Origin: Candidatus Gorgyraea atricola
GTDB lineage: Bacteria; Omnitrophota; Gorgyraeia; Gorgyraeales; Gorgyraeaceae
Direction of reading: 5' to 3'
Assembly: GCA_030765235.1 (NCBI GenBank)
Contig: JAVCCW010000029.1
Location: 311,666 to 375,665 of the forward strand
DNA length: 64,000 nt
Below are positions 4,836 through 48,757 of the stretch, one piece after another. The translations under genes were made by a program, and so were the position numbers. The first letter of the stretch is position 1, and each line of letters starts with the position of its first letter. The notes below the pieces were generated by a model. That model searched no databases and was not told the DNA's origin. It worked only from the letters and a program-made list of their open reading frames with translations.

Positions 4836-4841
4836 TTAGCT

Positions 4842-4880
4842 AAAGTAGACAAAACAGACAATGACTGTTTTGTCTACTTT
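4842..4880. terminator. hairpin aaagtagacaaaacag-N8-ctgttttgtctacttt after the GH57 gene; repeated element (second copy 48853-48891)
   Basis: perfect 16-bp stem, T-rich 3' side; identical stem found again at 48.85 kb. Confidence 0.6.
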
Positions 4881-4939: not shown

Positions 4940-6133
4940 TTGTCCATGAATAAGAAGACTATAAAGGATATTGAGATTAAGGGTAAGCGGGTTTTGATGC
5001 GGGTGGATTTTAATGTGCCGTTGGATAAGGATTTGAGGATATCTGACGATACTCGTATACGCGCAGCGCTGCCTACTATAAAATATGCTGTGGAGCAGGG
5101 CGCAAAGGTGGTTTTGATGAGCCATCTTGGTCGGCCTAAGGGGCAGGTAGTTGATTCTATGAGACTGACACCTATTGCTGAGCGGCTTTCTGAGCTTTTA
5201 GGTAAGCCTGTTAAGAAACTGGATGAGTGTGTTGGCGCTGATGTAAAAAAGGTTGTATCTGGCATGAAGGTCGGAGATGTGGTTTTGCTTGAGAATCTCA
5301 GGTTTCATGCTGAGGAGACAAAGAATAATCCTGATTTTGCAAAGAAACTTGCTGCGCTGGGCGATGTTTATGTAAATGACGCGTTTGGTACTGCTCATCG
5401 GGCTCATGCTTCTACAGAAGGCGTTACAAAATTTATAAAGATCTCTGCTGCAGGATTTTTACTTGGCAAGGAGATTGAGTATTTTGATAAAGCCCTTTCT
5501 GATCCGCCAAAGCCATTTGTGGCAATACTGGGCGGCGCAAAGGTATCAGATAAGATCATGGTGATCGAGAATCTTTTGGAAAAGGTGCATGCGATTCTTA
5601 TTGGTGGCGGCATGGCCTATACATTTATTAAGGCAGAGGGTAAAGAGATAGGAAATTCCAAGCTAGAGGCAGATAAGATAGATGTTGCAAAGTCACTGAT
5701 AGAAAAGGCAAAGGCAAAGGGTGTAAAGATATTATTGCCTGTGGATCATTTGATCGCTGACAAGATCGATGCATATAGTAACACCAAGGTCGTAGATGAG
5801 ACCATACCAGTTAACTGGATGGGTGTTGATATCGGACCCAAGACAGTGGATGAATTTAAGAAAGAATTGCGCAATGCCAAGATGATCATATGGAACGGGC
5901 CTTTAGGAATATTTGAAATATCGAAATTCGCAAGAGGCACAGAGGATGTGGCAAGATTTGTTGCAGGACTTGATAAGGCAATCACGATCATAGGCGGAGG
6001 CGACACAGCAAGCGCAATATCAAAGTTTGGATTAGAGAATGCAATGACGCACATCTCCACAGGAGGCGGAGCGTCATTAGAATACATGGAAGGCAAGGTG
6101 CTGCCAGGTATCGCAGCACTCAACGACAAATAG
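4940..6133 (+). CDS. pgk: phosphoglycerate kinase
   Basis: RVDFNVPLD..., [17 protein letters not shown] motifs; 397 aa. Confidence 0.9.
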
Positions 6134-10715: not shown

Positions 10716-10761
10716 CTCCTCCTCTGTAGGCCAGGTTTAAACCTGGCCTACAGAGGAGGAG
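10716..10761. repeat. perfect palindrome CTCCTCCTCTGTAGGCCAGGTTTAAACCTGGCCTACAGAGGAGGAG (REP-like; related copy at 18955-19012)
   Basis: seen directly; centred on GTTTAAAC. Confidence 0.6.
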
Positions 10762-14162: not shown

Positions 14163-14263
14163 AGGCAAAGGCCTTTGCGACAAATATGTAGGTCACACAA
14201 TAGCAGCTTATAGCAGCTGTAGGGCACACTTCAGTGTGCCAAAGATATTTAAAATTTCATATT

Positions 14264-15562
14264 ATGTCATATACAATTACTGAAAAAATATTACTGAAGC
14301 ATACTGACAAGAAATCTATCGTGCCTGGGGATTTTATCTACGCAGAGATTGATATGGCGCTTGGGAATGATATTACCGCGCCTATTGCCATAAAGGAATT
14401 CGAGTCTGCCGGAGCCAGGAAAGTTTTTAACAGAAAAAAGATCGCGCTTGTACCTGATCACTTTACGCCTGCCAAGGATAAGAAGAGCGCGGACCAGGCA
14501 AAGATCCTTAAGGAATTTGCCAGAAAGCATAATATAGAGAACTATTTTGAAATAGGCCGCATGGGTGTGGAGCACGTGCTTTTGCCAGAGCAGGGACTTG
14601 TCGGGCCGGGCCAACTCATTATAGGTGCTGATTCTCATACCTGTACGTATGGAGCACTTGGCGCATTCTCAACAGGTGTTGGCTCTACGGATCTTGCAGC
14701 AGGTTTCATAACAGGACGCGTATGGTTAAAGGTGCCTGAGAGCATGAAATTTATTTATTATGGCAAGCCTGGAAAATGGACAGGCGGCAAGGATTTTATT
14801 TTACACACTATTGGAGATATTGGCGTAGATGGCGCATTGTACAGGGCCATGGAATTTACAGGCGAGGCCATACGAAGGCTACCAATGGATGATAGATTTG
14901 CGATGTGTAACATGGCGATCGAGGCTGGTGGGAAGTCTGGGATTATTGAGGCGGATGATGCGACTATTAAATATTGCCTAGCGTCAGGGACAAGGGACCC
15001 CATACGAAAATCAAAGATTTCGTACGGGGCAGGCATGGGACAAGGGACAAGGAGTGATAAAGACGCCAGGTATTGTGAGACGCGGGAATATGATGTTAGT
15101 AAGATCGAGCCGCAGGTTTCTGCGCCGCATTTGCCTAGCAATGCCGGGGCTGTGAGCAAGTTTAAGAAAATAAATATAGATCAGTCAGTGATCGGCTCAT
15201 GCACAAATGGCAGGATAAGTGATCTGAGGATAGCTGCAAAGATCTTGAAAGGCAAAAAGGTTGATTCAGGAGTCAGGCTGATAATCATACCGGCTACACA
15301 AAAGATATATGTACAGGCAATGGAAGAAGGCCTTGCAGATATCTTTATTGATTCAGGCGGTGTTTTTTCAACGCCCAGCTGTGGGCCATGTCTTGGCGGA
15401 CACTTGGGTATTTTAGCAAAAGGCGAACGCGCAATCGCCACCACGAACAGAAACTTCCGCGGCAGAATGGGGCATCCTGAGAGCGAAGTCTATCTCTCGA
15501 ACCCAGCTGTAGCTGCGGCCAGCGCAATAAAAGGAAGGATAGCTCATCCTGATGAAATTTAA
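14264..15562 (+). CDS. leuC: 3-isopropylmalate dehydratase large subunit (aconitase family; homoaconitase-type not excluded)
   Basis: aconitase-family catalytic domain; SCTNGR, CGPCLG motifs; followed by leuD, leuB. Confidence 0.8.
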   Translation: MSYTITEKILLKHTDKKSIVPGDFIYAEIDMALGNDITAPIAIKEFESAGARKVFNRKKIALVPDHFTPAKDKKSADQAKILKEFARKHNIENYFEIGRMGVEHVLLPEQGLVGPGQLIIGADSHTCTYGALGAFSTGVGSTDLAAGFITGRVWLKVPESMKFIYYGKPGKWTGGKDFILHTIGDIGVDGALYRAMEFTGEAIRRLPMDDRFAMCNMAIEAGGKSGIIEADDATIKYCLASGTRDPIRKSKISYGAGMGQGTRSDKDARYCETREYDVSKIEPQVSAPHLPSNAGAVSKFKKINIDQSVIGSCTNGRISDLRIAAKILKGKKVDSGVRLIIIPATQKIYVQAMEEGLADIFIDSGGVFSTPSCGPCLGGHLGILAKGERAIATTNRNFRGRMGHPESEVYLSNPAVAAASAIKGRIAHPDEI

Positions 15563-18954: not shown

Positions 18955-19012
18955 CCCTCTCCTCTGTAGGCCGGGTTTAAACCCGGCCTACAGAGGTGGT
19001 GTAGGGAGAGGG
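18955..19012. repeat. palindrome CCCTCTCCTCTGTAGGCCGGGTTTAAACCCGGCCTACAGAGG...GGGAGAGGG (REP-like, family of 10716-10761)
   Basis: shares CTCTGTAGGCCnGGTTTAAACCnGGCCTACAGAG core with the opp intergenic copy. Confidence 0.6.
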
Positions 19013-20317: not shown

Positions 20318-21192
20318 AAACCAAAGTTTACTACGAGGTGGATCCGCATAATAGGCTTGTTATTAAGAGCCCGTCGAAGAAGTCTAATGTAAAGAAGTTT
20401 CGCAGGGTTGTTGAAGGCCGGTTTAGGGCAGATGGGAAAAATCGGCTGTATTACGAGGTTTTTAAATCTTCCAAGAGTGACACTCCTCAAAAGATAAAAT
20501 TTTCTGGCAAATATTCTCTGGATAAAAAGCATAATCTTATTTATACGTTAGATAAGTGGAGTAATCAGTGTGAGGGCAATCGACTTAGGTTAAAGACGAA
20601 ACTTCTGGATGCTGGAAAGAATGAGATCATGTTTTTAGTTCAGTCTCGAGATCCTTCTAAGGGTAAGAGGCGTATTTATACAATGAAGCTGCATGGCAAA
20701 TGGCAGGCAGATAAGAATAATAGGCTTTGTTTTGGGATAGAAAAGACCAGGAATAAATTAACCTTATCAAATGCATGGCAGATAAACAAGAACAATGAGA
20801 TAGTCTATAAATATGGCAGACAGCCAGAGGCTATTGTGTTAAAAGGTAAATGGCAGATAAGGAAAAAACATAGATTGGGATATGTCTTGGAGAAAAGACT
20901 CGATTCTGGATTTAACTTCAGGACATCGCTTGGCCAGATAGTGCCAAAGAAAAAAAAGACATACCTAAAGTTCGATGTTATTATAGATATAACAAAGAGG
21001 AAGAGGATAAAAAGAAAAATTACTTTTTGCGGTACGTGCAAGCTTACTAAAGATGGAAGGATTTTATTAGAAATGTCTCCTGGTAAAGAAAAGAAACTTA
21101 GCCTGAAATTAACAAAGCGCATGGCCTATATTGAGTCTTTTATTAAAGGCAGGGAAAGATATTTAGGCGGAGGTATTGCTTTTAGATGGTAG
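20314..21192 (+). CDS. hypothetical lysine-rich protein with internal repeats
   Basis: recurring GKWQxxKxxRL / NRLYYEV-like segments; no known domain recognised. Confidence 0.45.
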   Translation: MKTKVYYEVDPHNRLVIKSPSKKSNVKKFRRVVEGRFRADGKNRLYYEVFKSSKSDTPQKIKFSGKYSLDKKHNLIYTLDKWSNQCEGNRLRLKTKLLDAGKNEIMFLVQSRDPSKGKRRIYTMKLHGKWQADKNNRLCFGIEKTRNKLTLSNAWQINKNNEIVYKYGRQPEAIVLKGKWQIRKKHRLGYVLEKRLDSGFNFRTSLGQIVPKKKKTYLKFDVIIDITKRKRIKRKITFCGTCKLTKDGRILLEMSPGKEKKLSLKLTKRMAYIESFIKGRERYLGGGIAFRW

Positions 21193-23750
21193 AGTATAGT
21201 TTAATCAAAAATTTTGATAACTCAGTAGAGCAGTTTAAGGATAAGGTTGCTATTTTATCTGGTTCAACGTCACTGACTTATGCAGAGCTTGGCGAGAAGA
21301 TAAAAAATACCGCATGTTACATATCTTCATTAGGCATTGAAAAAGGTGACAGGGTTGCGATCATTCTTGATAATGGGCCAGAGTTTGCGAGCGTATTTTT
21401 TGCATTGGCTTATATAGGCGCGGTCGCGGTTCCTCTTGATCCAAGGATGACAGAGAAGGATGTAGCAAACATCATGTCTGACTCTGGCGCAAAGATCCTT
21501 CTTACAATTGATAAAATAAAAGAACTAGACCCACCGCAAGTTTTTGAGAAAGCCATAGTAGAACCAGACGACCTTATAGTGCTGCTTTACACCTCTGGCA
21601 CCACAGACCTTCCAAAAGGTGTAATGCTCACGCATAAGAATCTGTGCTCGAATTTTAATTCTTTGAGGAAGATGAAGATCTTTACGCCAAAGGATACGAT
21701 ATTATCAATTCTCCCGCTTTACCATTCCTATTCACTCATGACTACGCTTATCGCGCCTCTTTTTTCAGGTTCAAAGATCGTGTATGTCTCTAGTGACTGG
21801 CCAGAGAAATTAGCTGACTATATAAAGGAAGCTGGAACAACCGTATTTATAGGTGTACCGCAGATTTATCACATGATGCATTCGCGCATGATTAAAAAGC
21901 TTAGCAGTATAGAAGGCCTTAAGGGGCTATTTGTAAAATCAGTAATAGCTCTTGGCCTTACAAAGGTACTTTTGCCCAAGGTCAAAAACGCCTTTGGAAA
22001 AAGGCTTCGCTTTTTTATAAGCGGCGGCGCAAAGCTGGATGCTACAGTGGCAAGGGATTTTTTCAAGCTTGGCTTTAAGATATTGGAAGGCTATGGCCTG
22101 ACTGAAACTTCTCCTGTTGCAAGTATAAATCCAGTGAAAAGGCCAAAGATAGGGTCGATTGGCACGCCTGTTCCTGATGTAAGGATGAGGATCTTGAATC
22201 CAGATTCCAGCGGCGTAGGCGAGATCGTGATCCAGGGCCCAAATGTCATGAAAGGCTACTATAAGAATGAGGAAAAGACAAAAGAGGTGCTTAAGAATAA
22301 CTGGTTTTATTCAGGCGACCTGGGATACAAGAATAGAGATGGATATTTTTATATTACAGGCAGGTCTAAAGAGGTGATAGTACTTAGCTCAGGCAAGAAT
22401 ATCTATCCTGAGGAGATTGAAAAGCATTATTCGAATACGTCCTACATAAAAGAAATGTGTGTTATAGGCGTATTAAAGGGAAAAGGCAATAGTAAGCTTG
22501 AATATCTGCATGCGATTGTTGTACCAGACCTTGAGTTTTTTAAAGAGCGCGGCGAAATGAATGTGAATCAAGTGTTAAAGGCCACATTTGATAATCTCTC
22601 TAAAGACATACCTGGCTATAGGCATATCATGGGATTTACTGTGACAAAAGAGGCTCTGTCGCGTACTGTGCTGGGCAAGCTCAAGCGATATGAGATCGAG
22701 AAAAAATTCCTTCCTGTTATTTTAGAAGAGACAGAGGAAGAAAAAGCTGTGAGTCCAGAAGATCAGGCTTTGCTTCAATCTGATACAGCGAAAAGGCTAA
22801 TAGCGTGCATAAAGGATGCGCTTGAGATAAAAGGGGATGCGCATCTTAATGACAGTATTGAGCTTGATCTGGGAGTGGATTCACTTACCAGGGTAGAGCT
22901 TGTTCTGGCTGTTGAGAAGTGTTTTAACATAGAGATATCGGATGAGATGATCGCGGCGGGGATATTTACGGTTAAGGATATTCTTACGAAAGTTGAAGAA
23001 CTCTTGGCAAGTGACAAGCGACAAGTGACAAGCGACAAGGGCGTGGAAAGAGCTATTCACTGGGCTGGGATTTTGAAGCAGGAATTGGCAAAGGATTTTC
23101 AGGACAAGATATCGTTGGAGTTGAGCTGGATAGATTATGTGTTTACTTTTATAATTAAAGGGTGCGTTGGTTTATTTTTCAGGATTTTTTATAGGCTCAA
23201 GGTAGAAGGCGCGGAAAAGATACCTAAGAAAGGGCCTTATGTTTTATGTGTGAATCATACTAGTTTCCTGGACGGGTTTATTGTACTATCTGGTGTGCCG
23301 CTTAGGACAGAACTTGAGTTATTCTTTATTGGATTCAGGAGATATTTTATAGTGCCTATCATAAGGAATCTTGTAAGGCGCTCAAGGATCATTCCTGTAG
23401 ATGCCACGCAGATCATAGAGGCAATGCAAGGCTCTGCGTATATCCTGAAGCACAATAAGGCCCTCTGTATATTCCCTGAGGGAGAGCGTTCTATTGACGG
23501 CGAGGTAAAGGAATTCAAGAAAGGTATTGGCATAATTGCAAAAGAACTAAATGCGCCACTTGTACCGGTTTATATCAATGGCGCTTTCAAAGCCTGGCCC
23601 AGGACACAGAAATTTCCAAAACTACACCCTATTAGCATAAAATTTGGCAGTCCTGTTGCACCTGATGTGTTAGCCAAGAAAGGCGACGCAAAAGACGAAC
23701 ACGAAGCAATTGCTGCAGGTATAAGAGGAGAGGTAATTAACCTTGGGTAA
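21186..23750 (+). CDS. tri-domain fusion: acyl-CoA/acyl-ACP synthetase (AMP-binding) + acyl carrier (PP-binding) domain + 1-acyl-sn-glycerol-3-phosphate acyltransferase (Aas-like)
   Basis: LLYTSGTTDLPKGV AMP motif; DSLTRVEL phosphopantetheine site; NHTSFLD (HX4D) and FPEGERS acyltransferase motifs; 854 aa. Confidence 0.75.
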   Translation: MVEYSLIKNFDNSVEQFKDKVAILSGSTSLTYAELGEKIKNTACYISSLGIEKGDRVAIILDNGPEFASVFFALAYIGAVAVPLDPRMTEKDVANIMSDSGAKILLTIDKIKELDPPQVFEKAIVEPDDLIVLLYTSGTTDLPKGVMLTHKNLCSNFNSLRKMKIFTPKDTILSILPLYHSYSLMTTLIAPLFSGSKIVYVSSDWPEKLADYIKEAGTTVFIGVPQIYHMMHSRMIKKLSSIEGLKGLFVKSVIALGLTKVLLPKVKNAFGKRLRFFISGGAKLDATVARDFFKLGFKILEGYGLTETSPVASINPVKRPKIGSIGTPVPDVRMRILNPDSSGVGEIVIQGPNVMKGYYKNEEKTKEVLKNNWFYSGDLGYKNRDGYFYITGRSKEVIVLSSGKNIYPEEIEKHYSNTSYIKEMCVIGVLKGKGNSKLEYLHAIVVPDLEFFKERGEMNVNQVLKATFDNLSKDIPGYRHIMGFTVTKEALSRTVLGKLKRYEIEKKFLPVILEETEEEKAVSPEDQALLQSDTAKRLIACIKDALEIKGDAHLNDSIELDLGVDSLTRVELVLAVEKCFNIEISDEMIAAGIFTVKDILTKVEELLASDKRQVTSDKGVERAIHWAGILKQELAKDFQDKISLELSWIDYVFTFIIKGCVGLFFRIFYRLKVEGAEKIPKKGPYVLCVNHTSFLDGFIVLSGVPLRTELELFFIGFRRYFIVPIIRNLVRRSRIIPVDATQIIEAMQGSAYILKHNKALCIFPEGERSIDGEVKEFKKGIGIIAKELNAPLVPVYINGAFKAWPRTQKFPKLHPISIKFGSPVAPDVLAKKGDAKDEHEAIAAGIRGEVINLG
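23010..23043 (+). repeat. tandem heptamer repeat (GTGACAA/GCGACAA)x4 + GGG in frame inside the Aas-like gene (encodes SDKRQVTSDKG)
   Basis: agtgacaagcgacaagtgacaagcgacaagggc. Confidence 0.65.
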
Positions 23751-23792
23751 CTTCGTAAGTTGTCCATTTGGACAACTTACGAAGTTACCCAA
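23743..23792. terminator. near-perfect 23-bp hairpin TTGGGTAACTTCGTAAGTTGTCC-loop-GGACAACTTACGAAGTTACCCAA overlapping the stop of the Aas-like gene
   Basis: seen directly; no T-run, so terminator versus structural element is unresolved. Confidence 0.5.
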
Positions 23793-23811
23793 GGTAGAAC
23801 AGGGGGATTGT

Positions 23812-24084
23812 ATGAGCAAAGTAACAGTTAAAAAGCCCACCAAGGAAGAGCTGCAGAAGTTAGGCGTGGACAAATGGCCTACATGGACGAGTGAGGTAAA
23901 GAAATTTGACTGGGAATATAGCGACAACGAGACATTTTATGTGCACGAAGGCAAGGTAAAGGTAATCATAACTGACGGCCAGGAAGTCGAATTCGGCAAA
24001 GGCGACCTCGTAACATTCCCCAAAGGCGTAAAATGCACATGGGACGTAAAAGAATCTATCCGTAAGGTCTATAATTTCGGATAA
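23812..24084 (+). CDS. cupin-domain small protein (DUF861-like)
   Basis: ~90 aa with FPKGVKCTWDVKESIRKVYNFG C-terminus typical of small cupins; start moved to ATG 23812 with GGGGGA Shine-Dalgarno; the upstream extension is the hairpin. Confidence 0.55.
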   Translation: MSKVTVKKPTKEELQKLGVDKWPTWTSEVKKFDWEYSDNETFYVHEGKVKVIITDGQEVEFGKGDLVTFPKGVKCTWDVKESIRKVYNFG

Positions 24085-24087
24085 GTT

Positions 24088-24191
24088 AACCCCATTCCAA
24101 ATTCTGAGTGACGCGTAATTTATTTTTTGGAACTACTTGCGTGCAATTCTTAAAGATTATTTGATGATCTTTAAGAATTTGGAACGGGGTT
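24088..24191. mobile_element. MITE-like element, ~104 bp, terminal inverted repeats AACCCCATTCCAAATTC / GAATTTGGAACGGGGTT
   Basis: TIRs seen directly; internal palindrome aattcttaaagat...atctttaagaatt; related TIRs at 47.5 and 47.85 kb. Confidence 0.5.
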
Positions 24192-24247
24192 CAATTCGTA
24201 CAGTGAGTTACGAAAATCAGAGATTTCCGTAACTCAGGTGCTCATTG

Positions 24248-24301
24248 AAATGCACCTGGGATGTAAAGCAACCCATCCGCAAAGTCTATAACTTTGGATA
24301 A
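24248..24301 (+). pseudogene. duplicated, diverged fragment of the 3' end of the cupin gene (KCTWDVKQPIRKVYNFG*)
   Basis: ~80% nt identity to 24031-24084 including the stop codon; lies just beyond the MITE-like element. Confidence 0.45.
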
Positions 24302-24346
24302 CTTTACATTTTAGGTCTTGCTTTAAATGTAAAGTTATGTTATAAT
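24296..24346 (+). promoter_or_regulatory. inverted repeat AACTTTACATTT-N13-AAATGTAAAGTT containing the 25-mer AGGTCTTGCTTTAAATGTAAAGTTA, followed by an extended -10 TGTTATAAT
   Basis: 25-mer repeated exactly at 44679-44703 (uvrA 5' UTR); half-site shared with the inverted repeat at 27220-27262. Confidence 0.4.
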
Positions 24347-24354
24347 CTTTTTGA

Positions 24355-25605
24355 GTGCAAGGAGATATGGCCATGGAAGCATGGTCATATTGTGTCTGGG
24401 TTATGATGGGAATTAGAAAAGTTTATTATATAGCAGTAATATTGATGCTAATACTAATGTTAACATCAGGTGATGCGGTCTGTCTAGGCTCCCTCAGGCC
24501 ATACATGCAGCTTGAAAAAGGTAAGAACAAAGAAATTAATCTAGATAAAGTTTCTTTGAGCGAGACAGAAGAGGTCGTTGAGGAATTTGACAATTTAGTT
24601 AGACTTAATATGAACTTTGAACCGGATAATGAAAAGCAGGATTATGGCAGCAAACCTCGATCAATGTTAATTCAACTTGTCAATGATTGGAGGAATTGGG
24701 AGTCAAATGAGAGACGTATTTTGGATTTATCATGTCATTTGTTGGGGATAGAAAATATTTTAGAATTCAAAACTATCAGACCCATTAAACCCATTATCCT
24801 TGCCGGTGGAAGAGGGTCAAGAGCAAATAATAAAGCCAAAGTTTTAGAGAGAGTCGACGGAAAGTCGACCATAATGCATATTTTAAATAATATTTTAATC
24901 CTAAAAAAGAGCAACCTGGGATTTCAGATCGAAATAGAGAAACCTCTAATTGTGGTTAACTATGAAAATGCAGAGTTAATAGCAAATGCTTTAAAGGGTT
25001 ATGAAGTTGAATATTTTATAGAAGAGAAGCCACTTGGCACAGGTAAAGGCGTATTAGAGACAGAAGAGCTTACGAGAGATTTTAAAGGCGATGTCTTAGT
25101 TTATTTAGGTGCCAGACCATGTGTATATACACCTAGTATTTTAAAGAGCATTCTTATACATCAGGCTATAGAATTTTCTTCCATGACGCTTATCACAACT
25201 GTAGTAAAAAAACCTTATGCACCGCTTGTAAGGGATCCAGAAAATAGTTTTGTGATTGATAGTGTAGAGACACACTTGGAAAAAGCGAAAGCACCTCCTA
25301 TAGGCGAGAGCAATATAGGTGTTTATCTTGTAAGGAAGCAGGATCTATATTGGCCGTTACATGAAGCACATAATGAATTATATAATGCTGCTGATAATAC
25401 TTACAAGTGGCCGGGAGAGCTAGGATTTGTCAATCAGATGGTACGCAGGTTAGCTGCAGAAGATAGACTAGTAATCAGTTTACCCTTGGCTAATACTGAA
25501 GAGGGGTCCGGTATTAGATTCGCAGGTGATAGTCATGCAATGCACATATCAAGAGAACATTTATTAACATCCATTAAAAGCATTGCTCCGCGGTATGGAT
25601 TATAG
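24355..25605 (+). CDS. exported/membrane-anchored protein with conserved N-terminal leader + sugar-nucleotidyltransferase-like domain
   Basis: leader MMGIRKVYYIAVILMLILMLTSGDAVC...LRPYMQLE; ILAGGRGSRANNKAKVL and KPLGTGKGV resemble G-x-G-T-R / LGTGHA motifs of GlmU/RmlA-type NTP transferases; true start may be ATG 24409. Confidence 0.5.
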   Translation: MQGDMAMEAWSYCVWVMMGIRKVYYIAVILMLILMLTSGDAVCLGSLRPYMQLEKGKNKEINLDKVSLSETEEVVEEFDNLVRLNMNFEPDNEKQDYGSKPRSMLIQLVNDWRNWESNERRILDLSCHLLGIENILEFKTIRPIKPIILAGGRGSRANNKAKVLERVDGKSTIMHILNNILILKKSNLGFQIEIEKPLIVVNYENAELIANALKGYEVEYFIEEKPLGTGKGVLETEELTRDFKGDVLVYLGARPCVYTPSILKSILIHQAIEFSSMTLITTVVKKPYAPLVRDPENSFVIDSVETHLEKAKAPPIGESNIGVYLVRKQDLYWPLHEAHNELYNAADNTYKWPGELGFVNQMVRRLAAEDRLVISLPLANTEEGSGIRFAGDSHAMHISREHLLTSIKSIAPRYGL

Positions 25606-25625
25606 AAAAACCTGGGAGCCATTTT

Positions 25626-27185
25626 ATGATAACTATTAGAAAAGTTTATTATATAGGACTAATATTTACGCTAATAGCAATGTTAGCGGCAGGTGATGTG
25701 GTCTGCGCCCAAGACCTGCTCAGGCCGTATATGCAGCTTGAAGCAAAAACAAAGAAGCCCAACAGGCGGCAGAGGATTTTGGGGGAGAATGAGAAAGAGG
25801 TTGAGTATTTAGGGAAGATAGCAACTGCAGCTAGTAGGGGTGAAAATGCGCTGGAGGGAAAAGCAAGGATGTTGTTTGAGAGATTGACTGAAGATCCTGA
25901 GTCTGATTTGCTGGATACAGTAGAATTCGATAAAAGATTTATTACTTGGTTTTATGCTGTATTTAATCCTTATGAGCCAACAAAAGTGGCAAAGGAATAT
26001 TTAGAAAAATATCCCGGCATATTTAATCAGAGTTACGATAATGATGTCGCCAAGATAAAAAGTTTATTTAAAAGAATATTTCATGCTGCAGCATTAAAGG
26101 AATTAGACTTGTCAAAGAAAAATATCAAAGAATTAGAGCAATATATGATTCTACATAGTGATTCTCTGTCAATGAGAGGTGAAAAAATAGAGAAAATGTC
26201 CAAGTTGCTTAAAACAGGCAAGCCTAAATCCCATAAAGAGATTTTTTATAAATATTGTAGTATCATTTATCGTTTTTATGAAGAGACCTGTACATGGAAT
26301 AAGGAGATTTCAGGGCCAGCTGATTTTGATCGATATGGTGATGAATATGGATTAAATGGAGGATTGCCGTACCTTGCTTTTATGGAAAGATATAGAAAAG
26401 AGCATAATTTAATGGAGATTCATCGCTGGCTAGAAATTGGCAAAGCAAGATATTGTATACTTAATAATAATATTCCCATGGTAATTGAAATATTTGAAAG
26501 ACTATCTGAGGCTTGTGAGTACGATGTCAATTCCCCTATCCGCCAGACGCTTTTGTGGACGTATAAAAACGGCCTGCCTGGCCTTGGCCAGATAGTGGAA
26601 GAGCTGGGTATGGATGGGATTTGTGTTGAGGAAATAGGTATGCTTATGGAGCAGCTTTCGGATTTTTTAGATAATAAGGAAGAACTGGTTGATATGCCAG
26701 AACCCATATATGATGTATTAATAAAGGGACACTTAGGCAGACTAATAGAAGTAGAGAGTTTGAATGTCGTAGGTATTACAGCATTAAAGCAGACAAAAAA
26801 TCACCTTAAAAGTGTTATTATGGATGAATACTTGACTGAAAAGGAAAAGCTTTCTATTATTAATGACTGGATTTCTGGCCTAAAGATAGCTTTTAGAGAC
26901 TATAGAAATATAGTAAAAGTATTTTTAAACACGAATGTGCTTTTAAAATGGGCAAAGTTATTGGCAGAAAGCAAAAACGAAGATAAAAATAAAACCGCTC
27001 AAATGCTTAAAGATGAAGATTTCAGGAATAGGTTTATGCGGATTATGAGTGAATATCTACAACTGGTTAATCACGTACAGCAAAGTTTTAATGAAATCAT
27101 CCCCTATTTCCAAATGCGCTTGGAGATGGAGCAAGGGGTGGGGGAGGTTTTGGAGTCTAATGGGGCTGTGGAGGTGGCGATTTAA
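25626..27185 (+). CDS. hypothetical 519-aa protein sharing the N-terminal leader of the preceding gene; remainder alpha-rich, no recognised domain
   Basis: MITIRKVYYIGLIFTLIAMLAAGDVVCAQDLLRPYMQLE aligns with residues ~19-57 of the upstream protein; the rest is unrelated. Confidence 0.5.
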   Translation: MITIRKVYYIGLIFTLIAMLAAGDVVCAQDLLRPYMQLEAKTKKPNRRQRILGENEKEVEYLGKIATAASRGENALEGKARMLFERLTEDPESDLLDTVEFDKRFITWFYAVFNPYEPTKVAKEYLEKYPGIFNQSYDNDVAKIKSLFKRIFHAAALKELDLSKKNIKELEQYMILHSDSLSMRGEKIEKMSKLLKTGKPKSHKEIFYKYCSIIYRFYEETCTWNKEISGPADFDRYGDEYGLNGGLPYLAFMERYRKEHNLMEIHRWLEIGKARYCILNNNIPMVIEIFERLSEACEYDVNSPIRQTLLWTYKNGLPGLGQIVEELGMDGICVEEIGMLMEQLSDFLDNKEELVDMPEPIYDVLIKGHLGRLIEVESLNVVGITALKQTKNHLKSVIMDEYLTEKEKLSIINDWISGLKIAFRDYRNIVKVFLNTNVLLKWAKLLAESKNEDKNKTAQMLKDEDFRNRFMRIMSEYLQLVNHVQQSFNEIIPYFQMRLEMEQGVGEVLESNGAVEVAI

Positions 27186-27219
27186 GATAGGTCCCCGCTT
27201 TCGCGGGGATGACAACTGG

Positions 27220-27262
27220 TTAACTTTACACTTTTGTGACACACAGAAAAGTGTCAAGTTAA
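27220..27262. promoter_or_regulatory. imperfect palindrome TTAACTTTACACTTTTGTG-N5-CACAGAAAAGTGTCAAGTTAA upstream of rplM promoter (operator-like)
   Basis: seen directly; outer half-sites AACTTTACA / TGTCAAGTT resemble those at 24296-24337. Confidence 0.4.
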
Positions 27263-27276
27263 GTCGAATATTTCGC

Positions 27277-27304
27277 TTGACAGAGGTGGGTTTTATGGTA
27301 TAAT
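27277..27304 (+). promoter_or_regulatory. sigma70-type promoter TTGACA-16-TATAAT for rplM-rpsI
   Basis: consensus hexamers read directly from the sequence. Confidence 0.5.
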
Positions 27305-27329
27305 TCAAGTTTCTAAATAAAGGTGGATT

Positions 27330-27764
27330 ATGGATACGGTTATGTTAAATAAGAAGGATGTTGTGAGAAAGTGGTATGTTATCGACGCTAATGGTAAGAT
27401 TCTGGGTAGATTAGCTGTTGAGATAGCGCTTATTTTGAGCGGCAAGCGCAAGAATAACTATACACCGCATGTGGATAATGGTGACTTTGTGGTTGTGCTG
27501 AACGCGGGCAAGGTAGCTGTTACAGGCGCTAAGCTTGAGAACAAGACATATAAGCGTTACTCAGGATATCCGAGCGGTCTAAAGATAAAGAACTTAGAGA
27601 CAGTTTTAAGGACAAAGCCTACTGAGGCATTGCATCATGCAGTAAAGGGTATGTTACCTAAGAATAAGCTGGGCTCAAGGATGATCACAAGGCTCAAGCT
27701 TTACGCAGGTTCAGAGCACGAACATCAGGCTCAGAATCCTGAGAAGTTAGAGATAAAAGGATAA
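27330..27764 (+). CDS. rplM: 50S ribosomal protein L13
   Basis: [15 protein letters not shown]..., [12 protein letters not shown]. Confidence 0.9.
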
Positions 27765-27767
27765 ATC

Positions 27768-28163
27768 ATGGTAGAGCAGAACATAATCTGGGCAACTGGG
27801 AGGCGGAAGTCATCTGTGGCTCGCGTGCGGCTTATGCCGGGAAATGGCGAGGTACAGGTCAATAAAAAGCCTCTCGATAAATATTTTGAAAGACCTACAT
27901 CTATACTGGTTGTAATGCAGCCGCTAAAGTCCACTAACCTGTTTGATAAGTTCAATGTGATCGCAAGTGTTAAGGGTGGTGGAAAGTCAGGTCAGGCAGG
28001 AGCTTTAAGGCATGGCATAGCAAGGGCCTTGGCTAAAACAGGTGATGATACAAAGGTCTTATTAAGGAGAAAGGGTTATTTGACCAGGGATCCTCGGGCA
28101 AAGGAACGCAAGAAGTACGGACAAAAAGGCGCCCGAAAGAGATTCCAGTGGACAAAGCGATAA
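27768..28163 (+). CDS. rpsI: 30S ribosomal protein S9
   Basis: GGGKSGQAGALRHGIARAL and C-terminal KKYGQKGARKRFQWTKR. Confidence 0.9.
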   Translation: MVEQNIIWATGRRKSSVARVRLMPGNGEVQVNKKPLDKYFERPTSILVVMQPLKSTNLFDKFNVIASVKGGGKSGQAGALRHGIARALAKTGDDTKVLLRRKGYLTRDPRAKERKKYGQKGARKRFQWTKR

Positions 28164-28189
28164 AGATATAAAACTATAATTTTCCATAA

Positions 28190-28253
28190 AAGCCTATCTT
28201 GCTTTTTCCGACGAGGAAATCAATTGACAAGATAGGCTTTTTTATTTTATAAT
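28190..28253 (+). terminator. rho-independent terminator after rpsI (stem AGCCTATCTTG/CAAGATAGGCT + T-run) overlapping a TTGACA-18-TATAAT promoter for argC
   Basis: stem-loop followed by TTTTTTATTTT; -35/-10 hexamers at 28224-28229 / 28248-28253. Confidence 0.55.
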
Positions 28254-28279
28254 CGTCTATAACACAGACGGAGGACAAT

Positions 28280-29293
28280 ATGTTAAAAATAGGAATAATG
28301 GGAGCGAGCGGTTATGCTGGTGAAGAACTTTTAAGGATTTTATTAAATCATCCTGAAGCCCGGATCACAGCAGTTGCTGCTAAGATAGATACTGTACCAA
28401 TATATAAGCTATATCCATGGCTAAAGGGTGTGCTTGACCTGGAGTGCGGAGACATGAGCGCAGACGAAGTCGCTAAGAAATGCGATGTAGTTTTCTTAGC
28501 GCTTCCGCACAAGGTCTCTATGCAGTTCGCGCCGATATTTTTGAAAAAAGGCAAGAAGGTCATAGACCTGAGCGCTGATTTTAGGTTAAGGGATGTAGGC
28601 GTATACGAGAAGTGGTATGTTAAGCACGAATGCCCTGACTATGTTAAGAAGGCAGTTTATGGGCTTTGCGAATTTTATAGAGATGAGATCAAGAAGGCAG
28701 AGCTGATCGCAAATCCAGGGTGCTATCCAACGAGCATTATCTTTGGCTGCGCTCCACTTTTAAAGAAAAAAATAGTGGATATAGATTCCATTGTATGCAA
28801 TTCAGTTTCAGGTGTGAGTGGCGCAGGCAGGGTCCCAAGTCAGGCGCTTATGTTTACAGAGCTACAAAATAGTTTTAGGGCATATAAGCCAAATAGCCAC
28901 AGACACATGCCTGAGATAGATCAGGAGCTGAGCGAGATCAGTGGCGCTAAGATAGCAGTGAATTTTGTGCCGCATCTTGTGCCAATGGAAAGAGGCATAC
29001 TCTCTACGATCTACCTGAGGCTAAAAAAGAACATAACTACAAAAGAGACTGTGAAGCTGTATAAGGATTTCTATAAAGGTGAGTATTTTATAAGGGTTAT
29101 GGACGAGGGAGTATTGCCTGATACAAAGAATGTAGCGAGATTAAATTTCTGCGACATAGGTGTGCAGGCGTTTCCTGAGAAAAAGACAATAGTAGTTACA
29201 ACTGCTATTGACAATCTTGTAAAGGGCGCAAGCGGCCAGGCAGTACAGAACATGAATATCATGTATGGGTTCGAGGAGAAGATGGGATTATGA
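28280..29293 (+). CDS. argC: N-acetyl-gamma-glutamyl-phosphate reductase
   Basis: MLKIGIMGASGYAGEELLRIL; active-site NPGCYPT. Confidence 0.9.
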   Translation: MLKIGIMGASGYAGEELLRILLNHPEARITAVAAKIDTVPIYKLYPWLKGVLDLECGDMSADEVAKKCDVVFLALPHKVSMQFAPIFLKKGKKVIDLSADFRLRDVGVYEKWYVKHECPDYVKKAVYGLCEFYRDEIKKAELIANPGCYPTSIIFGCAPLLKKKIVDIDSIVCNSVSGVSGAGRVPSQALMFTELQNSFRAYKPNSHRHMPEIDQELSEISGAKIAVNFVPHLVPMERGILSTIYLRLKKNITTKETVKLYKDFYKGEYFIRVMDEGVLPDTKNVARLNFCDIGVQAFPEKKTIVVTTAIDNLVKGASGQAVQNMNIMYGFEEKMGL

Positions 29294-33380: not shown

Positions 33381-34555
33381 AGAATAAAAAGGTGGTTTTA
33401 GCGTATTCAGGCGGGTTAGATACTTCGGTGGCTGTGAGATGGCTTACAGATAAGGGCTATGATGTTGTTGCCTACATGGCTGATGTGGGCCAGGGCGGGA
33501 ATTTTCAGAAGCTCAAGAAAAGGGCCTTGTCTACAGGTGCCTCAAAGGTCGTGATCGAGGATCTCAAAGACGAATTTGCAAAAGACTTTGCCTTTCAGTC
33601 GTTAAAGGCAGGCGCAGTCTATGAATCAAAGTATCTATTGGCAACCGCGCTTTCAAGGCCGATCATCGCAAAGGGCCTGGTGCAGACCGCGAAAAAGGAA
33701 AAGGCTAGTTTTATCGCGCATGGCTGTACAGGAAAAGGCAATGACCAGGTAAGGTTCGAGGTCACTGCAATGGCGCTTGCGCCTGAGCTCGGCATACTGG
33801 CGCCGCTCAGGGAATGGAATATGTATTCCAGAGACGAAGAAATAGAGTATGCAAAGGAAAAAGGCATAGACATAGATGTTACGAAAAAAAGCCCTTATAG
33901 TTTAGATCAGAATATTTGGGGAATAAGCATTGAGTGTGGCGTGCTAGAAGATCCATGGAATGAGCCGCCAGAAGACGCGTATAAAATGAGTATTGATCCA
34001 AAAATGGCGCCAAATAAATCAACATATGTAGAGATCGAGTTTAAAAATGGCATACCAGTAAAGATCAATGGAAAAAAATACGCGGCAGTGGATCTGGTAA
34101 TGAAGCTCAATAAGATCGGCGGCAAAAATGGCATAGGCAGGACTGATCTTGTTGAGAATAGACTCGTTGGCATTAAATCAAGGGAGATATATGAGGCGCC
34201 AGGGGCGTGGATCTTACATAAGGCGCATAAGGATTTAGAGGCGCTTGTGCTCGACAGGGAGCTGTTGCATTTTAAGGAAGTTATTTCCTTAAAATACGCG
34301 GAGCTTATATATTACGGCTTATGGTTTACACCTTTAAAAAAGGCGCTGGACGGATTTATAAACCAGACGCAGAAGAATGTAACAGGCAGTGTGAAGATGA
34401 AGCTGTTAAAGGGTCTTGCGAGTGTAGTAGGGAGAAAATCAGCGCACTCACTTTATAAAAAAGAAATGGCAACATATGACCCAGGCGATAAGTTCGACAG
34501 GACCATTGCGGAAGGATTTATTAAAGTGTGGGGAATGCCGTATAAAAAGGTGTAA
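33377..34555 (+). CDS. argG: argininosuccinate synthase
   Basis: VVLAYSGGLDTSV PP-loop. Confidence 0.9.
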   Translation: MKNKKVVLAYSGGLDTSVAVRWLTDKGYDVVAYMADVGQGGNFQKLKKRALSTGASKVVIEDLKDEFAKDFAFQSLKAGAVYESKYLLATALSRPIIAKGLVQTAKKEKASFIAHGCTGKGNDQVRFEVTAMALAPELGILAPLREWNMYSRDEEIEYAKEKGIDIDVTKKSPYSLDQNIWGISIECGVLEDPWNEPPEDAYKMSIDPKMAPNKSTYVEIEFKNGIPVKINGKKYAAVDLVMKLNKIGGKNGIGRTDLVENRLVGIKSREIYEAPGAWILHKAHKDLEALVLDRELLHFKEVISLKYAELIYYGLWFTPLKKALDGFINQTQKNVTGSVKMKLLKGLASVVGRKSAHSLYKKEMATYDPGDKFDRTIAEGFIKVWGMPYKKV

Positions 34556-34617
34556 GGTGTCAAGTGTCAGGTGTCAGGGAAGGTGCCTTGACACCTGACA
34601 CCTTTAACCTGACACTA
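34548..34617. repeat. heptamer-repeat hairpin (GGTGTCA-type units x4 + GGG, then reverse-complement arm) between argG and argH
   Basis: aaggtgtaaggtgtcaagtgtcaggtgtcagggaaggtgccttgacacctgacacctttaacctgacact. Confidence 0.6.
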
Positions 34618-37176: not shown

Positions 37177-37964
37177 ATAAGCTAAAATTTACGAAAATGG
37201 TTGGGGCTGGGAATGATTTTGTCTTGATTGATATTAGGGACAAGAGACAAGGAACAAGGGACAAGGGCTGGTCTAGGGTTGCGCAGGATTTATGTCAGAG
37301 GAAGACTGGGGTTGGTGCGGATGGGTTGCTTGTACTGGAGAAGTCTAAAAGAGCAGATTTTAGGATGCGCATATTCAATGCTGATGGCAGTGAAGCAGAG
37401 ATGTGTGGCAATGGCCTAAGGTGCGCTGCACTATACGTAGGCAAAAAAGGCAAGGCAAAGGTTGAGACAAAAGCAGGTCTTTATGAAGCGACCATTACAG
37501 GTAAAAATAGAGTTAAGATAAAGATGGAAGAACCCAAGGATTTGAAATCAGGTTTTCCGATCAGAGTAAATGATAGGCGCATAAGAGTGAGTTATGTTGA
37601 TACTGGTGTGCCGCATACAGTGGTTTTTGTGCAGGGCATTGAAAAGATAGACGTTGATTCTATTGGCAGAAGTATAAGATATCATAAAGAATTCAAGCCG
37701 CGTGGCACAAATGTTGATTTTGTCGAAATTATAGACGATAAAAATATAAAGATGCGGACGTATGAGCGCGGAGTAGAAGGGGAGACGCTTGCCTGTGGCA
37801 CGGGAGCAGTGGCGGCGGCGATTATAAGTAGTGTCAGGTGTCAGGTGTCAGGTGTCAATGTGCACACAAAAGGTGGGATTTTAAAGGTTTATATTGGTCA
37901 TAAAGGAGTATATTTAGAAGGAGAAGCGCGAAAGGTTTACCAGGGAGAGGTGAATTATGTTTGA
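37173..37964 (+). CDS. dapF: diaminopimelate epimerase
   Basis: FTKMVGAGNDFVLID, two catalytic Cys (MCGNGLRC, LACGTGAVAAA); carries two in-frame heptamer-repeat inserts. Confidence 0.85.
   Translation: MNKLKFTKMVGAGNDFVLIDIRDKRQGTRDKGWSRVAQDLCQRKTGVGADGLLVLEKSKRADFRMRIFNADGSEAEMCGNGLRCAALYVGKKGKAKVETKAGLYEATITGKNRVKIKMEEPKDLKSGFPIRVNDRRIRVSYVDTGVPHTVVFVQGIEKIDVDSIGRSIRYHKEFKPRGTNVDFVEIIDDKNIKMRTYERGVEGETLACGTGAVAAAIISSVRCQVSGVNVHTKGGILKVYIGHKGVYLEGEARKVYQGEVNYV
37247..37278 (+). repeat. in-frame heptamer repeat (GGGACAA/GAGACAA/GGAACAA)x4 + GGGC inside dapF (encodes RDKRQGTRDKG)
   Basis: gggacaagagacaaggaacaagggacaagggc. Confidence 0.65.
37830..37858 (+). repeat. in-frame heptamer repeat (GGTGTCA)x4 inside dapF (encodes VRCQVSGVN)
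   Basis: agtgtcaggtgtcaggtgtcaggtgtcaa. Confidence 0.65.
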
Positions 37965-43428: not shown

Positions 43429-44194
43429 TATGAAAAAAATAGGAATAATCGGCTGTGGCGCAATAGGAACAGGCATTGCAGAGTTTATCCAGCAAAACCT
43501 TAGAAAAAAGGCAAAGATCGTGGCGCTTTGCGATCTAGACATCAAGAAAGCGCGATCCCTCTCCAAAAAGATAAAACCTTGTCCACAAGTCATCAATATC
43601 GATCGTCTAATAAAAAAATGTGATCTGATAATAGAAGCAGCCAGCCCCAAGATATCAGGAAAGATAGCGCAAAAGGCAGTCTTACACAAAAAAGAGGTCC
43701 TTATAATGAGTACAGGGGGGCTTTTGAAATTCAAAGACATAAAGTCAGTGCATATCCCCAGTGGCGCTGTTTGTGGCATAGATGGAATCCGGGCTGCAGC
43801 TATTGGAAAGATCAAAAGAGTAACATTGACCACTAGAAAACCTCCAAGAGGACTAAGAGGCGCGCCGTATTTGGAAAAAAGAAAGATAGATATAGATAAG
43901 ATCAAGAAAGAGACTGTAATATATGATGGGACTGCAACAGATGCTGTAAAACATTTCCCAAAGAACATCAATGTGGCAGCGACGCTGAGCCTTTCAGGAA
44001 TAGGGCCTGATCGCACAAAGGTACGAATAGTTACATCCCCAAAATATAAGACAAATTCGCACGAGGTCGAAGTCGAGGGTGAGTTTGGGAGACTTTTTAC
44101 AAAGACCGAGAATGTGCCCTCTAAACAAAACCCAAAAACGAGTCAACTTGCCATATTTTCAGCGCTTGCGAAGTTAAAAGAGGTAATATCATGA
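43421..44194 (+). CDS. nadX: L-aspartate dehydrogenase
   Basis: [19 protein letters not shown] Rossmann start; ~257 aa, Thermotoga NadX-like; adjacent to nadA. Confidence 0.7.
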
Positions 44195-44334: not shown

Positions 44335-44365
44335 CAAAAATAAAATAGAGGGGAGGTGAGACAGA

Positions 44366-44494: not shown

Positions 44495-44506
44495 GAAAGC
44501 AACAAT

Positions 44507-44703: not shown

Positions 44704-44709
44704 AGGGTT

Positions 44710-47496: not shown

Positions 47497-47500
47497 AAAT

Positions 47501-47863
47501 GTAACCCAAAAGCAGGCCTGCCTGCCCCGTACCAAATCGACCTGCCCCGTATCTTGCCGAAGGCAATGGTATGGGGAGATTTTGGTATGGGGGTCGCTCA
47601 GGGGAAAATTTCCCCATCCAGTATTGTGTGGCACGGGGTGTCCTGTGAGTGGGCCCCTCCGCCCGGTGTGGATCCTCCCACTCACAGGACACCCCGCGCC
47701 ACACTTATCCCATAAAAGGCTAAATTTTCAATTCGCCTGCCCCGTTCCAAATTCTTAAATATCAGCAAACAATCTATTAGAATTGTACGCGATTAGTTAC
47801 AAATAATAAATAGCTTATCTATCAGAATTTGGAACGGGGCTCCCAGGCCTCCTTTTGGGTTAC
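47501..47863. mobile_element. ~360-bp non-coding element with ~38-bp terminal inverted repeats (GTAACCCAAAAGCAGGCCTGCCTGCCCCGTACCAAAT ... GAATTTGGAACGGGGCTCCCAGGCCTCCTTTTGGGTTAC) and a GC-rich structured core
   Basis: TIRs seen directly; inner TIR portion (CCCCGTTCCAAATTC) matches the 24088-24191 element; core has a long hairpin gtggcacggggtgtcctgtgagtggg...cccactcacaggacaccccgcgccac. Confidence 0.5.
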
Positions 47864-47900
47864 ACTGTCATAGAAATATCTTCAAATATCAGCTCTTTTA

Positions 47901-47989: not shown

Positions 47990-48757
47990 ATGAGGAAGAT
48001 TGGAAAAGGGTATAAACTCATTCTAATATCTATACTAATGGGGGGGGCGTTTTTATCGTCGACTCTTGCCTACCCAGTGTATGGCTTTAACCTAAGACCA
48101 GCACTTAAGTTTCAAGGTCAAAACTCTCTTGGTGAAAATTTACAAAAACTTCGTGATACAGCGGGAAAAATTGACGATGAAATTAGTAAAATTTTTATCT
48201 GCGCAGAAACGCTTTCCGAGGGCATTTCTGCGCCAAATTACTTTCATGATAAATGCATTAAAAACGAGATGTTAATCCTTGAGAAAGGTAAAAAACGTAT
48301 TTATTTAACGCGACAATTAGCTCATCTACTAGGACATTTGTTAAATGAAGTTTCTTTGTTAATTAATCATACAGTGACCAAAGATATAGCAATGCGTTAT
48401 ACAATCAGTATATGCAGAAAATTAGATGTTCTTGCAAGACTAAAAGAAAAAGATTTAATGTTAAGGTTGTTGCAAGGTAACGAAGTATTCAATATATTAG
48501 GTTATCCACCAAATAAAGGACGTATACCAAAAATAGAAAATCGTGATGCCGTTATTTCAAAAGCTCGTGAGTTAATAACTGTGTTTAAAAATGAAGTCAT
48601 AAAGGACGAGCTGTTTGAGCTAGTAAGACTCTGTGACAGAGATCCAAATTTAGTTTTGAAGAAATGGTACGGAAACGAAAATGAGGTAGCTTCAAATTCC
48701 AATATTTCTTATAAGGTAAACTTTGGTTCGGATGAAATTCATAGAACAGGATTGTGA
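47990..48757 (+). CDS. hypothetical secreted protein
   Basis: signal peptide MRKIGKGYKLILISILMGGAFLSSTLA; LRP tripeptide just after the predicted cleavage site, as in the 24355/25626 leaders; AT-rich gene. Confidence 0.5.
   Translation: MRKIGKGYKLILISILMGGAFLSSTLAYPVYGFNLRPALKFQGQNSLGENLQKLRDTAGKIDDEISKIFICAETLSEGISAPNYFHDKCIKNEMLILEKGKKRIYLTRQLAHLLGHLLNEVSLLINHTVTKDIAMRYTISICRKLDVLARLKEKDLMLRLLQGNEVFNILGYPPNKGRIPKIENRDAVISKARELITVFKNEVIKDELFELVRLCDRDPNLVLKKWYGNENEVASNSNISYKVNFGSDEIHRTGL

Follow-up and report, generated by a model that had tools for sequence, protein, structure and literature searches.

The window analysed in this work, a whole stretch of 64,000 nucleotides, comes from Candidatus Gorgyraea atricola, which is represented by an Omnitrophota metagenome-assembled genome (MAG) from Ace Lake, Antarctica (PMC8542988); two proteins encoded in the window are 100% identical to proteins from a 404,273-bp contig of this MAG. 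The short repeat flagged in this window is very probably a non-autonomous cut-and-paste DNA transposon, a miniature inverted-repeat transposable element (MITE), specific to Candidatus Omnitrophota. The family is previously undescribed, while elements of this kind are well known. The presence of a non-autonomous transposable element family was proposed in the initial annotation of the window, and it is supported by terminal inverted repeats (TIRs), target site duplications (TSDs) of 4–5 bp, numerous copies, empty sites, and the lack of coding capacity.

Structure and distribution of the element

The element is a unit of 100 bp bounded by 16-nt TIRs (5'-CCCCGTTCCAAATTCT), in which no open reading frame (ORF) is possible; 49 of the 50 copies collected were 100–103 bp in size, in agreement with the limit of about 500 bp for non-coding MITEs. 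The 15-mer of the TIR, CCCCGTTCCAAATTC, was found with up to two mismatches at four sites of the window against 0.11 expected from shuffled sequences, and these sites pair into two 100-bp units. Exactly two matches in the window were obtained with a profile HMM of 50 family members, corresponding to the following copies:

24090..24189, + strand: MITE copy 1, 100 bp, in the family-consensus orientation; 80.1 bits, E 9e-24
47740..47839, - strand: MITE copy 2, 100 bp, with perfect 16-nt TIRs; 86.7 bits on the - strand

Across the full 100 nt, the two copies share 82% identity, and they lie in opposite orientations, since the profile score of copy 1 was 80 bits on the + strand vs 48 bits on the - strand, and that of copy 2 was 87 bits on the - strand vs 50 bits on the + strand. 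The TIRs of copy 1 (24090–24105, CCCCATTCCAAATTCT, and 24174–24189, AGAATTTGGAACGGGG) differ by a single mismatch at position 5 (A for G). As a single strand, this copy forms a long hairpin (dG -38 kcal/mol, z -6.2). Copy 2 lies inside a larger palindromic module, close to the right end of the latter, and members of the family often sit within other short palindromic repeats. The initial annotation had placed copy 1 correctly, the extra AA/TT being flanking bases. The second copy was reported there as an element of ~360 bp at 47501–47863; the true copy is the 100-bp unit listed above, and the supposed internal motif at 47745 is its left TIR. The same orientation ascribed to both elements holds for the downstream genes alone.

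The 50 copies originated from at least nine Omnitrophota species genomes and from metagenomes. A pattern scan of GTDB, with one genome per species and both repeats required at a distance of 55–85 nt, revealed 28 loci in nine genomes, all assigned to Candidatus Omnitrophota, and every copy was 100–103 bp long. Sixteen of these loci were in a single MAG, KR13_S3.mb.80; other hosts were a single amplified genome, marine biofilm MAGs, and Ca. Zapsychrus exili, which belongs to a different genus and was found in the same lake as the window. Three host MAGs are labelled "Planctomycetia," one of which is syntenic with the window at 82%–90% nucleotide identity. Scanning of metagenomes with a single repeat gave at least 120 loci and added at least 17 further copies, including one internally deleted to 43 bp. 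Among the metagenome matches listed, for which only one end was required, the other end had no mismatches in nine copies, one mismatch in six, and two mismatches in one. All 31 sites in the GTDB genomes and in the window were intergenic (between long ORFs), and every gene arrangement and both orientations occurred.

Subfamilies with the same TIRs and unrelated interiors were represented by loci L009, L044/L106, and L083 (L numbers designate the loci and contigs compared), and internally deleted variants of 43–46 bp (L074 and L028) keep little beyond the repeats. Identical ends combined with replaced interiors are the usual pattern when a transposase recognizes the ends only. The element sequence was recognized by none of the databases searched: a plasmid BLAST search with the consensus produced only chance 26-nt matches, and a scan of viral contigs only seven lone chance matches. 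A full-text literature search retrieved no paper mentioning both Omnitrophota and miniature inverted repeats.

Insertion sites and the transposition mechanism

Exact direct repeats of 4–5 bp in a common orientation flanked 25 of the 50 copies (17 of 33 in an earlier set); they were 4 bp long in 22 copies and 5 bp long in three. When the right flanks were permuted among copies in 5,000 trials, such cases averaged 3.0 and never exceeded 10. At least 11 different duplications were found (CGTG, CCCG, CGGG, CACG, CTTG, CAAG, CTCG, TTTA, TACA, CGAAG, and CGGAG), all of which fit the pattern YNNR and mostly CNNG. Because they vary in sequence, these repeats are target duplications and not a part of the element.

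Comparison with relatives, which share 84%–92% amino acid identity of UvrA or 88%–90% identity of the AMP-binding protein with the window, revealed sites lacking the element. At the site of copy 2, the window reads ...TTCAATTCGC-CTG-(100 bp)-CTCC-CAGGCCTCC, whereas in L158 the flanks are contiguous, ...TTCAATTCGC-GCC-CAGGCCTCC, with a net gain of 104 bp in the window. Likewise, the sequence GCATTTTGG-CGGG-(100 bp)-CGGGAC-CGAAAAAAC in the single-cell genome L007 corresponds to GCATTTTGG-TGGGGG-CGAAAAAAC in L158, a difference of 100 + 4 bp. No profile match was present within ~4–5 kb of either orthologous window site in relatives L158–L171. In KR13_S3.mb.80, three 100% identical cores occupy three loci that differ in their flanks, and the identity of other pairs is 96%–98%. 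The family is therefore multi-copy and recently active in some genomes.

The TIRs would be recognized by a trans-acting DDE transposase of an autonomous insertion sequence (IS), and a co-transcribed element would form a hairpin with a ~45-bp stem in the untranslated regions of neighboring genes. Both window copies are old or secondarily rearranged insertions that have no intact duplications, copy 2 being a simple +104-bp insertion into the palindromic module located after uvrA.

Several observations weigh against the assignment of the repeat to MITEs. Half of the copies have no duplication, including both copies in the window: copy 1 is flanked by TTAA / TTCA and copy 2 by GGAG/CAGG, although the site of copy 2 is 104 bp longer than the empty site. 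The subfamily to which copy 1 belongs always carries a ~12-nt motif in the right flank, TTCAATTCGCAC, and never a duplication; besides copy 1, eight further copies have T(T)CAA(A)TTCG directly after their right end. The perfection of TIRs in the GTDB genomes was imposed by the search pattern. The interior is well conserved across genera, with a mean column identity of 83%; a purely selfish element must stay active or spread horizontally to keep such a level. Neither an autonomous element nor a transposase gene between two such TIRs was found in the loci examined, the viral scan, or the metagenome matches listed (the 55–85-nt gap of the GTDB scan is blind to full-length IS), and an all-against-all comparison of ORFs in the MITE-bearing loci revealed no repeated transposase-like family.

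Some of the missing duplications have individual causes. Locus L022 joins the flanks of two other types, and recombination between copies explains the absence of a duplication there. The apparent lack of a duplication in L029 was rejected as an assembly fold-back: this contig folds back at the MITE, its parts 1–277 and 378–655 are perfect reverse complements, and in L098 this site carries the duplication CCCG. Short metagenome contigs of the organism represented by the window (the ends of L001/L002) stop at a GACAAG repeat and just past the MITE region.

The check for an autonomous partner envisaged in the initial annotation found no transposase in the loci examined, in the viral scan, or among the metagenome matches listed. 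A 1.5-kb repeat pair in the metagenome matches listed was rejected as a chance match in a high-GC epimerase gene, and the metagenome candidates L080, L060, and L041 were unrelated contigs, L080 encoding a high-GC epimerase-like ORF. By its CC termini, repeats of ~16 nt, and duplications of 4–5 bp, the element would best fit an IS1380/piggyBac-type partner. The transposon piggyBac has CCC...GGG ends and generates 4-bp duplications, and the IS1380 family is generally described in ISfinder by CC ends and 4–5-bp duplications. The ends of the element, CCCC...GGGG, likewise begin with CC, and the inverted repeats of ~15–16 nt and duplications of 4–5 bp are also similar; on the other hand, neither a transposase of the IS1380 type nor an autonomous copy bearing these repeats was detected in the loci examined. 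IS1380 members are prokaryotic relatives of piggyBac (PMC5718144), and one of them, IS1247, has inverted repeats of 16/13 bp and a 5-bp direct repeat (PMC3281130, Table 2). IS1634, IS701, and IS5 types stay in consideration as alternative partner families. The IS families so far reported to adjoin giant genes in Omnitrophota are IS110, IS5, and IS1634, and not IS1380 (preprint 10.64898/2026.06.07.730766).

At three loci the 5' end of a tRNA-Pro gene shares 5 nt with the MITE (L010, 7256–7428; L020, 5206–5586; L108, 4071–4243). The CGGGG at the right end of the element and the duplicated CG(TG) of its favored target CGTG supply positions 1–9 of tRNA-Pro and thus rebuild the 5' end of the gene, and a decayed copy of the former 5' end (xGGGGCGTG) persists at the opposite end of the MITE. 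The target was tRNA-Pro(GGG) in L010 and L020, which are two different genomes, and tRNA-Pro(UGG) in a third, L108; in one case three tandem copies are spaced by CGTG. This arrangement suggests either a recurrent end-mimicking choice of targets or selection for harmless insertions.

Genomic surroundings of the window copies

The following features were found around copy 1, at the 3' end of a cupin gene:

24031..24090, + strand: current cupin 3' end, copy "A" of a ~57-nt direct repeat; ~82% identical to the L166 3' end
24190..24247, + strand: 58-bp flank of copy 1, which begins with TTCAATTCGTAC and contains the hairpin GAGTTACGAAAATC...GATTTCCGTAACTC
24248..24307, + strand: displaced pseudo-3' end of cupin, copy "B" of the repeat, contiguous with the downstream hairpin, as in the relatives without the MITE

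The ~57-nt repeat of the cupin 3' end thus brackets copy 1 together with its 58-bp flank. The MITE and this flank recur as a unit in L014 (1820–1978 vs window 24248–24089, 78% identity over 160 nt). The window segment 24248–24337 is 95.6% identical to L166 7775–7864, and CTTTACATTTTAGG comes directly after the stop codon of cupin in L166 and L170. Relative to L166 and L170, the window has 217 extra bases comprising a divergent cupin 3' end, the MITE, and the 58-bp hairpin. The functional cupin end "A" is more divergent than the non-functional "B," and the differences between them are mostly synonymous. The 217-bp patch probably arrived by recombination with a related MITE-bearing allele and not by transposition in place.

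Downstream of the cupin gene lies an AT-rich hairpin of ~40 bp, TAACTTTACATTTTAGGTCTTGCTTTAAATGTAAAGTTA, followed by an extended -10 box, and this sequence is itself a dispersed repeat. It was observed at window positions 24299–24346 and 44679–44703, as well as in L009 (300–347 and 3952–3986), L166 (7835–7864 and 10754–10793), and L007 (7451–7493). In L166, two inverted copies of this hairpin bracket the variable cargo between cupin and rplM.

Copy 2 lies in a region occupied by nested palindromes, for which no strand was assigned:

47500..47864: outer palindromic module, taken for a ~360-bp copy in the initial annotation, with 21-nt arms TGTAACCCAAAAGCAGGCCTG / CAGGCCTCCTTTTGGGTTACA
47522..47598: small hairpin with arms CCCCGTACCAAATC... 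/ ...GATTTTGGTATGGGG, with three mismatches to the TIR on each side

The arms of the outer module (47500–47520 and 47844–47864) resemble a bidirectional terminator, and its inner ends are TTCGCTCAGG.GAAAATTT.CC / GGCTAAATTTTCAATTCGC. Several nested hairpins are enclosed together with MITE copy 2. The sequence GCCCCGTACCAAAT at 47523 belongs to the small hairpin and has three mismatches to the TIR; this hairpin may be a related mini-element and not a copy of the family. The module directly follows uvrA in L158 (UvrA 92% identical) and L165 (84%), in both cases without a MITE, and in L007 it occurs at an unrelated locus with the MITE at a different internal position, flanked by the TSD CGGG. Since L158 and L165 have the arms and inner ends but no 100-bp element, and the L007 element is placed elsewhere, the long "copy" was rejected as a member of the family. 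Module sizes vary from 110 to 360 bp (window 47500–47864; L158 6809–7075; L165 4100–4215; L007 1380–1700); the outer arms AAAAGGAGGCCTG...CAGGCCTCCTTTT are terminator-like, the inner ends are conserved, and the interior differs in each genome owing to nested small hairpin repeats.

Comparison of the window regions 21186–29293 and 43421–51531 with L158–L171 revealed two hotspots, fixed in position and flanked by conserved genes, at which the gene content turns over: one between cupin and rplM, and the other between uvrA and a gene for an 822-aa TPR-like protein. Both window copies are located in these hotspots, next to the following genes:

24403..27185, + strand: two low-GC cargo genes, 24403–25605 with an NTP-transferase domain and 25626–27185 with no Pfam match, sharing a 5' leader; not part of the element
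47990..48757, + strand: orphan gene for a 255-aa protein, headed by a leader of this kind and likewise separate from the element

Between uvrA and the 822-aa gene, the window contains the palindromic module with the MITE and the 255-aa orphan gene, in L158 the module lacks the MITE and is accompanied by an unrelated 251-aa gene, L165 has a short module and a methyltransferase gene, and only 47 bp are present in L162–L164. The 255-aa gene is absent or replaced in L158 and L162–L165; its product had a self-match alone among 5.8 billion clusters and nine matches among 1.84 billion representatives. Between cupin and rplM, the two leader genes of the window are replaced by genes for AbiEii, a helix-turn-helix protein, and a 483–493-aa leader protein in L166–L170, and by four metabolic genes in L171. 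No MITE was present within 5 kb in L166–L171.

The GC content of the genes downstream of the elements is 0.34–0.39 vs about 0.43, and they encode an N-terminal leader with a basic part and a hydrophobic part. Genes 24403, 25626, and 47990 share a 5' region with the pattern TTATGA-N5-ATTRGAAAAG, found three times in the window against 0.01 expected; the leader encodes M..IRKVYY / MRKIGKGY followed by a hydrophobic helix. This leader module, GGGTGGATTATGAG..GATTGGAAAAGG, with an LRP-like motif after the helix, heads unrelated low-GC rare genes in several Omnitrophota genera (window 24401–24421, 25624–25644, and 47988–48008; L028 1777 and 3511; L007 2319; L090 4297; L166 9256). Its conservation at the DNA level, 91% over 35 nt, is far above that of the protein, 33%. 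Domains found behind the leader are a nucleotidyltransferase in the window gene and a response-regulator receiver in the L028 gene, and for this reason export of the products is not established. Thus, the description of the downstream genes as AT-rich genes for exported proteins is valid for the lower GC content and the leader, while export is unproven.

In L028, the same leader heads two genes, each flanked by a MITE. This is a 5,162-bp contig of Ca. Zapsychrus exili with an exact 127-nt terminal overlap (1–127 and 5036–5162), corresponding to a 5,035-bp circle or to a tandem repeat. Besides the two MITE copies and two leader genes, it contains a 46-bp perfect mini-palindrome with the same ends (256–301) and three small membrane ORFs, and no replication or transposition gene was recognized in it.

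Among the 171 loci examined, the leader motif adjoins the element solely in the window and L028. Four of ~50 copies, two in the window and two in L028, directly flank a leader gene, while about 46 of 50 are not immediately next to one, and in L166–L170 leader genes are present in the absence of the element. A general link between the element and leader genes was therefore rejected, and a position of each copy upstream of a secreted-protein gene, as suggested in the initial annotation, is not a property of the family. The supply of regulatory sequence by the element also received no support. A promoter scan found no sigma-70-like promoter inside either window copy, on which ground promoter donation was rejected; the promoter-like site of gene 47990 detected by the scan (47881–47909) and the box TGTTATAAT of gene 24403 read by eye (24338–24346) are both outside the MITE. 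Nothing shows that neighboring genes are controlled by the element.

Mobilization of cargo by one-ended transposition, as in the case of ISEcp1, was rejected since there is no surrogate inverted repeat beyond the cargo genes, where the best repeat-like matches were at chance level, with 4–6 mismatches of 15. We know of no similarity between the ends of the element and the ISEcp1 repeats. The proposed association with accessory cargo holds in that both copies edge variable hotspots, but there is no evidence that the element moved the hotspot cargo. The occurrence of the MITE beside leader genes is best explained by their co-residence in variable intergenic hotspots rather than by regulation.

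Alternative explanations, related repeats, and significance

The element resembles several known groups of short bacterial repeats. Correia elements of Neisseria, ERIC/IRU of Enterobacteria, and RUP of Streptococcus pneumoniae are likewise ~100–150 bp long, non-coding, bounded by TIRs, and associated with short duplications; they are also intergenic, multi-copy, often nested, and capable of forming long hairpins if transcribed. No sequence similarity to them was seen, and their hosts belong to different phyla. The Omnitrophota element duplicates 4–5 bp of the type YNNR/CNNG, in contrast to TA in Correia, and, unlike these groups, it spans several genera with the same repeats. Similar to the Tn3-derived miniature elements TIMEs (PMC4133298), it is non-autonomous and combines shared terminal repeats with varied interiors, mosaics being possible, and the TIME duplication of 5–6 bp is close in length. 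However, TIMEs have 38-bp Tn3-type repeats beginning with GGGG and AT-rich targets, whereas the 16-nt repeats of the Omnitrophota MITE are unrelated and its targets are GC-rich.

It is improbable that the element delimits mobile gene cassettes or serves as their recombination site, comparable to integron attC sites or to the att sites of small integrative elements, by which leader genes are exchanged at hotspots. Such a role would be consistent with the order of L028 (leader gene, element, promoter, leader gene, element), whose contig ends overlap by 127 nt, with the differing gene content of close relatives in the regions bordered by both window copies, and with the ~57-nt direct repeat of the cupin 3' end around copy 1, which is reminiscent of integration sites in gene ends. 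Integron attC sites and the Vibrio cholerae repeats are also imperfect palindromes of similar length located beside accessory genes, in line with the gene-element-gene-element arrangement of L028. Nevertheless, the repeats flanking the element are short (4–5 bp) and of many sequences, as expected for transposition, its orientation is variable, most copies are not beside leader genes, leader genes occur without it, and no element-like end is present on the far side of the cargo. Moreover, the end GTTCCAA misfits the attC core GTTRRRY, the copies are dispersed, and neither R''/R' core sites, fixed orientation, an array in the window, nor an integrase gene in the ORF and gene lists inspected were found.

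Quite improbable too is a selected cis-acting RNA or DNA hairpin, such as a terminator, a site of mRNA stabilization or processing, or a protein-binding site, that is kept for its function. The hairpin is very stable (dG -36 to -42 kcal/mol, z -6 to -7), many copies are located 5–60 bp past a stop codon, the interior is conserved between genera, and other bacterial MITEs, Correia and ERIC, are known to have side effects of this kind. Against this, RNAalifold analysis of 33 copies supported the terminal stem alone with no covariation in the interior, both orientations and all gene arrangements occur, interiors were swapped wholesale in some subfamilies with unchanged repeats, and target duplications and empty sites show insertion. 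No Rfam family matched the window at gathering thresholds, weak matches to generic hairpins (miRNA precursors) being far below them; a structured RNA was rejected on the basis of these results. A REP/REPIN sequence moved by a RAYT transposase, or a palindromic element of the IS200/IS605 type, would fit a genome crowded with short palindromic repeats in which the element is often nested, and yet it is very improbable, since REP/REPIN and IS200/IS605 have palindromes of 20–40 nt or subterminal hairpins and are not known to carry TIRs in the transposon sense or to make target duplications, while here the unit is 100 bp long with 16-nt TIRs and variable 4–5-bp duplications. A reading as conserved intergenic DNA that does not move, or as a random similarity, has a practically negligible probability: although the 64-kb window alone holds just two copies, neither with an intact duplication, the 50 copies in many genomes and contexts, the relatives without the element at both window sites, and the identical copies at different loci in one genome refute it. 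The situation by which the initial annotation would have abandoned the transposon, two copies alone in conserved non-mobile DNA, was not observed.

Other short repeats were observed in the same DNA. A mini-palindrome, CCCCATACGAAAATCAAAGATTTCGTACGGGG, flanked by GGGACAAGG heptamers, is located at about 14985–15050 in frame within a leuC/aconitase-like ORF (14234–15562). The insert encodes ...ASGTRDPIRKSKISYGAGMGQGTRS..., and the palindrome itself (~14998–15030) resembles the hairpin 47522..47598. Runs of GACAAG-type heptamers occur at 23005–23045 (within the gene of the AMP-binding protein), 37235, 40709, and 41194. Several further families of short palindromes, perfect or nearly so, and of heptamer arrays were noted at 4840–4880 and 48851–48893, at 10716–10761 and 18959–18999, at 52591–52713, and at 34550–34617 and 37829–37858; a palindrome of the 48851–48893 type also adjoins the mini-MITE in L074.

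Omnitrophota are uncultivated and mostly ultra-small bacteria known almost solely from MAGs, and their mobile DNA is barely described. The finding leaves the general understanding of MITEs unchanged. It is possible, albeit rather unlikely, that the element is more than junk: an end-mimicking transposase would let it occupy essential tRNA-Pro genes harmlessly, and the element and its sister palindromes would mark, and perhaps promote, the exchange of leader genes between co-occurring Omnitrophota at fixed hotspots. The 16-nt repeat provides a handle for finding the partner transposase in newly completed genomes. The MITE family can serve as a marker for assembly breaks, given that short contigs end near the repeats and that the fold-back of one contig lies at the element, as well as for strain-level insertion polymorphism and for hotspots of accessory-gene turnover in these bacteria.

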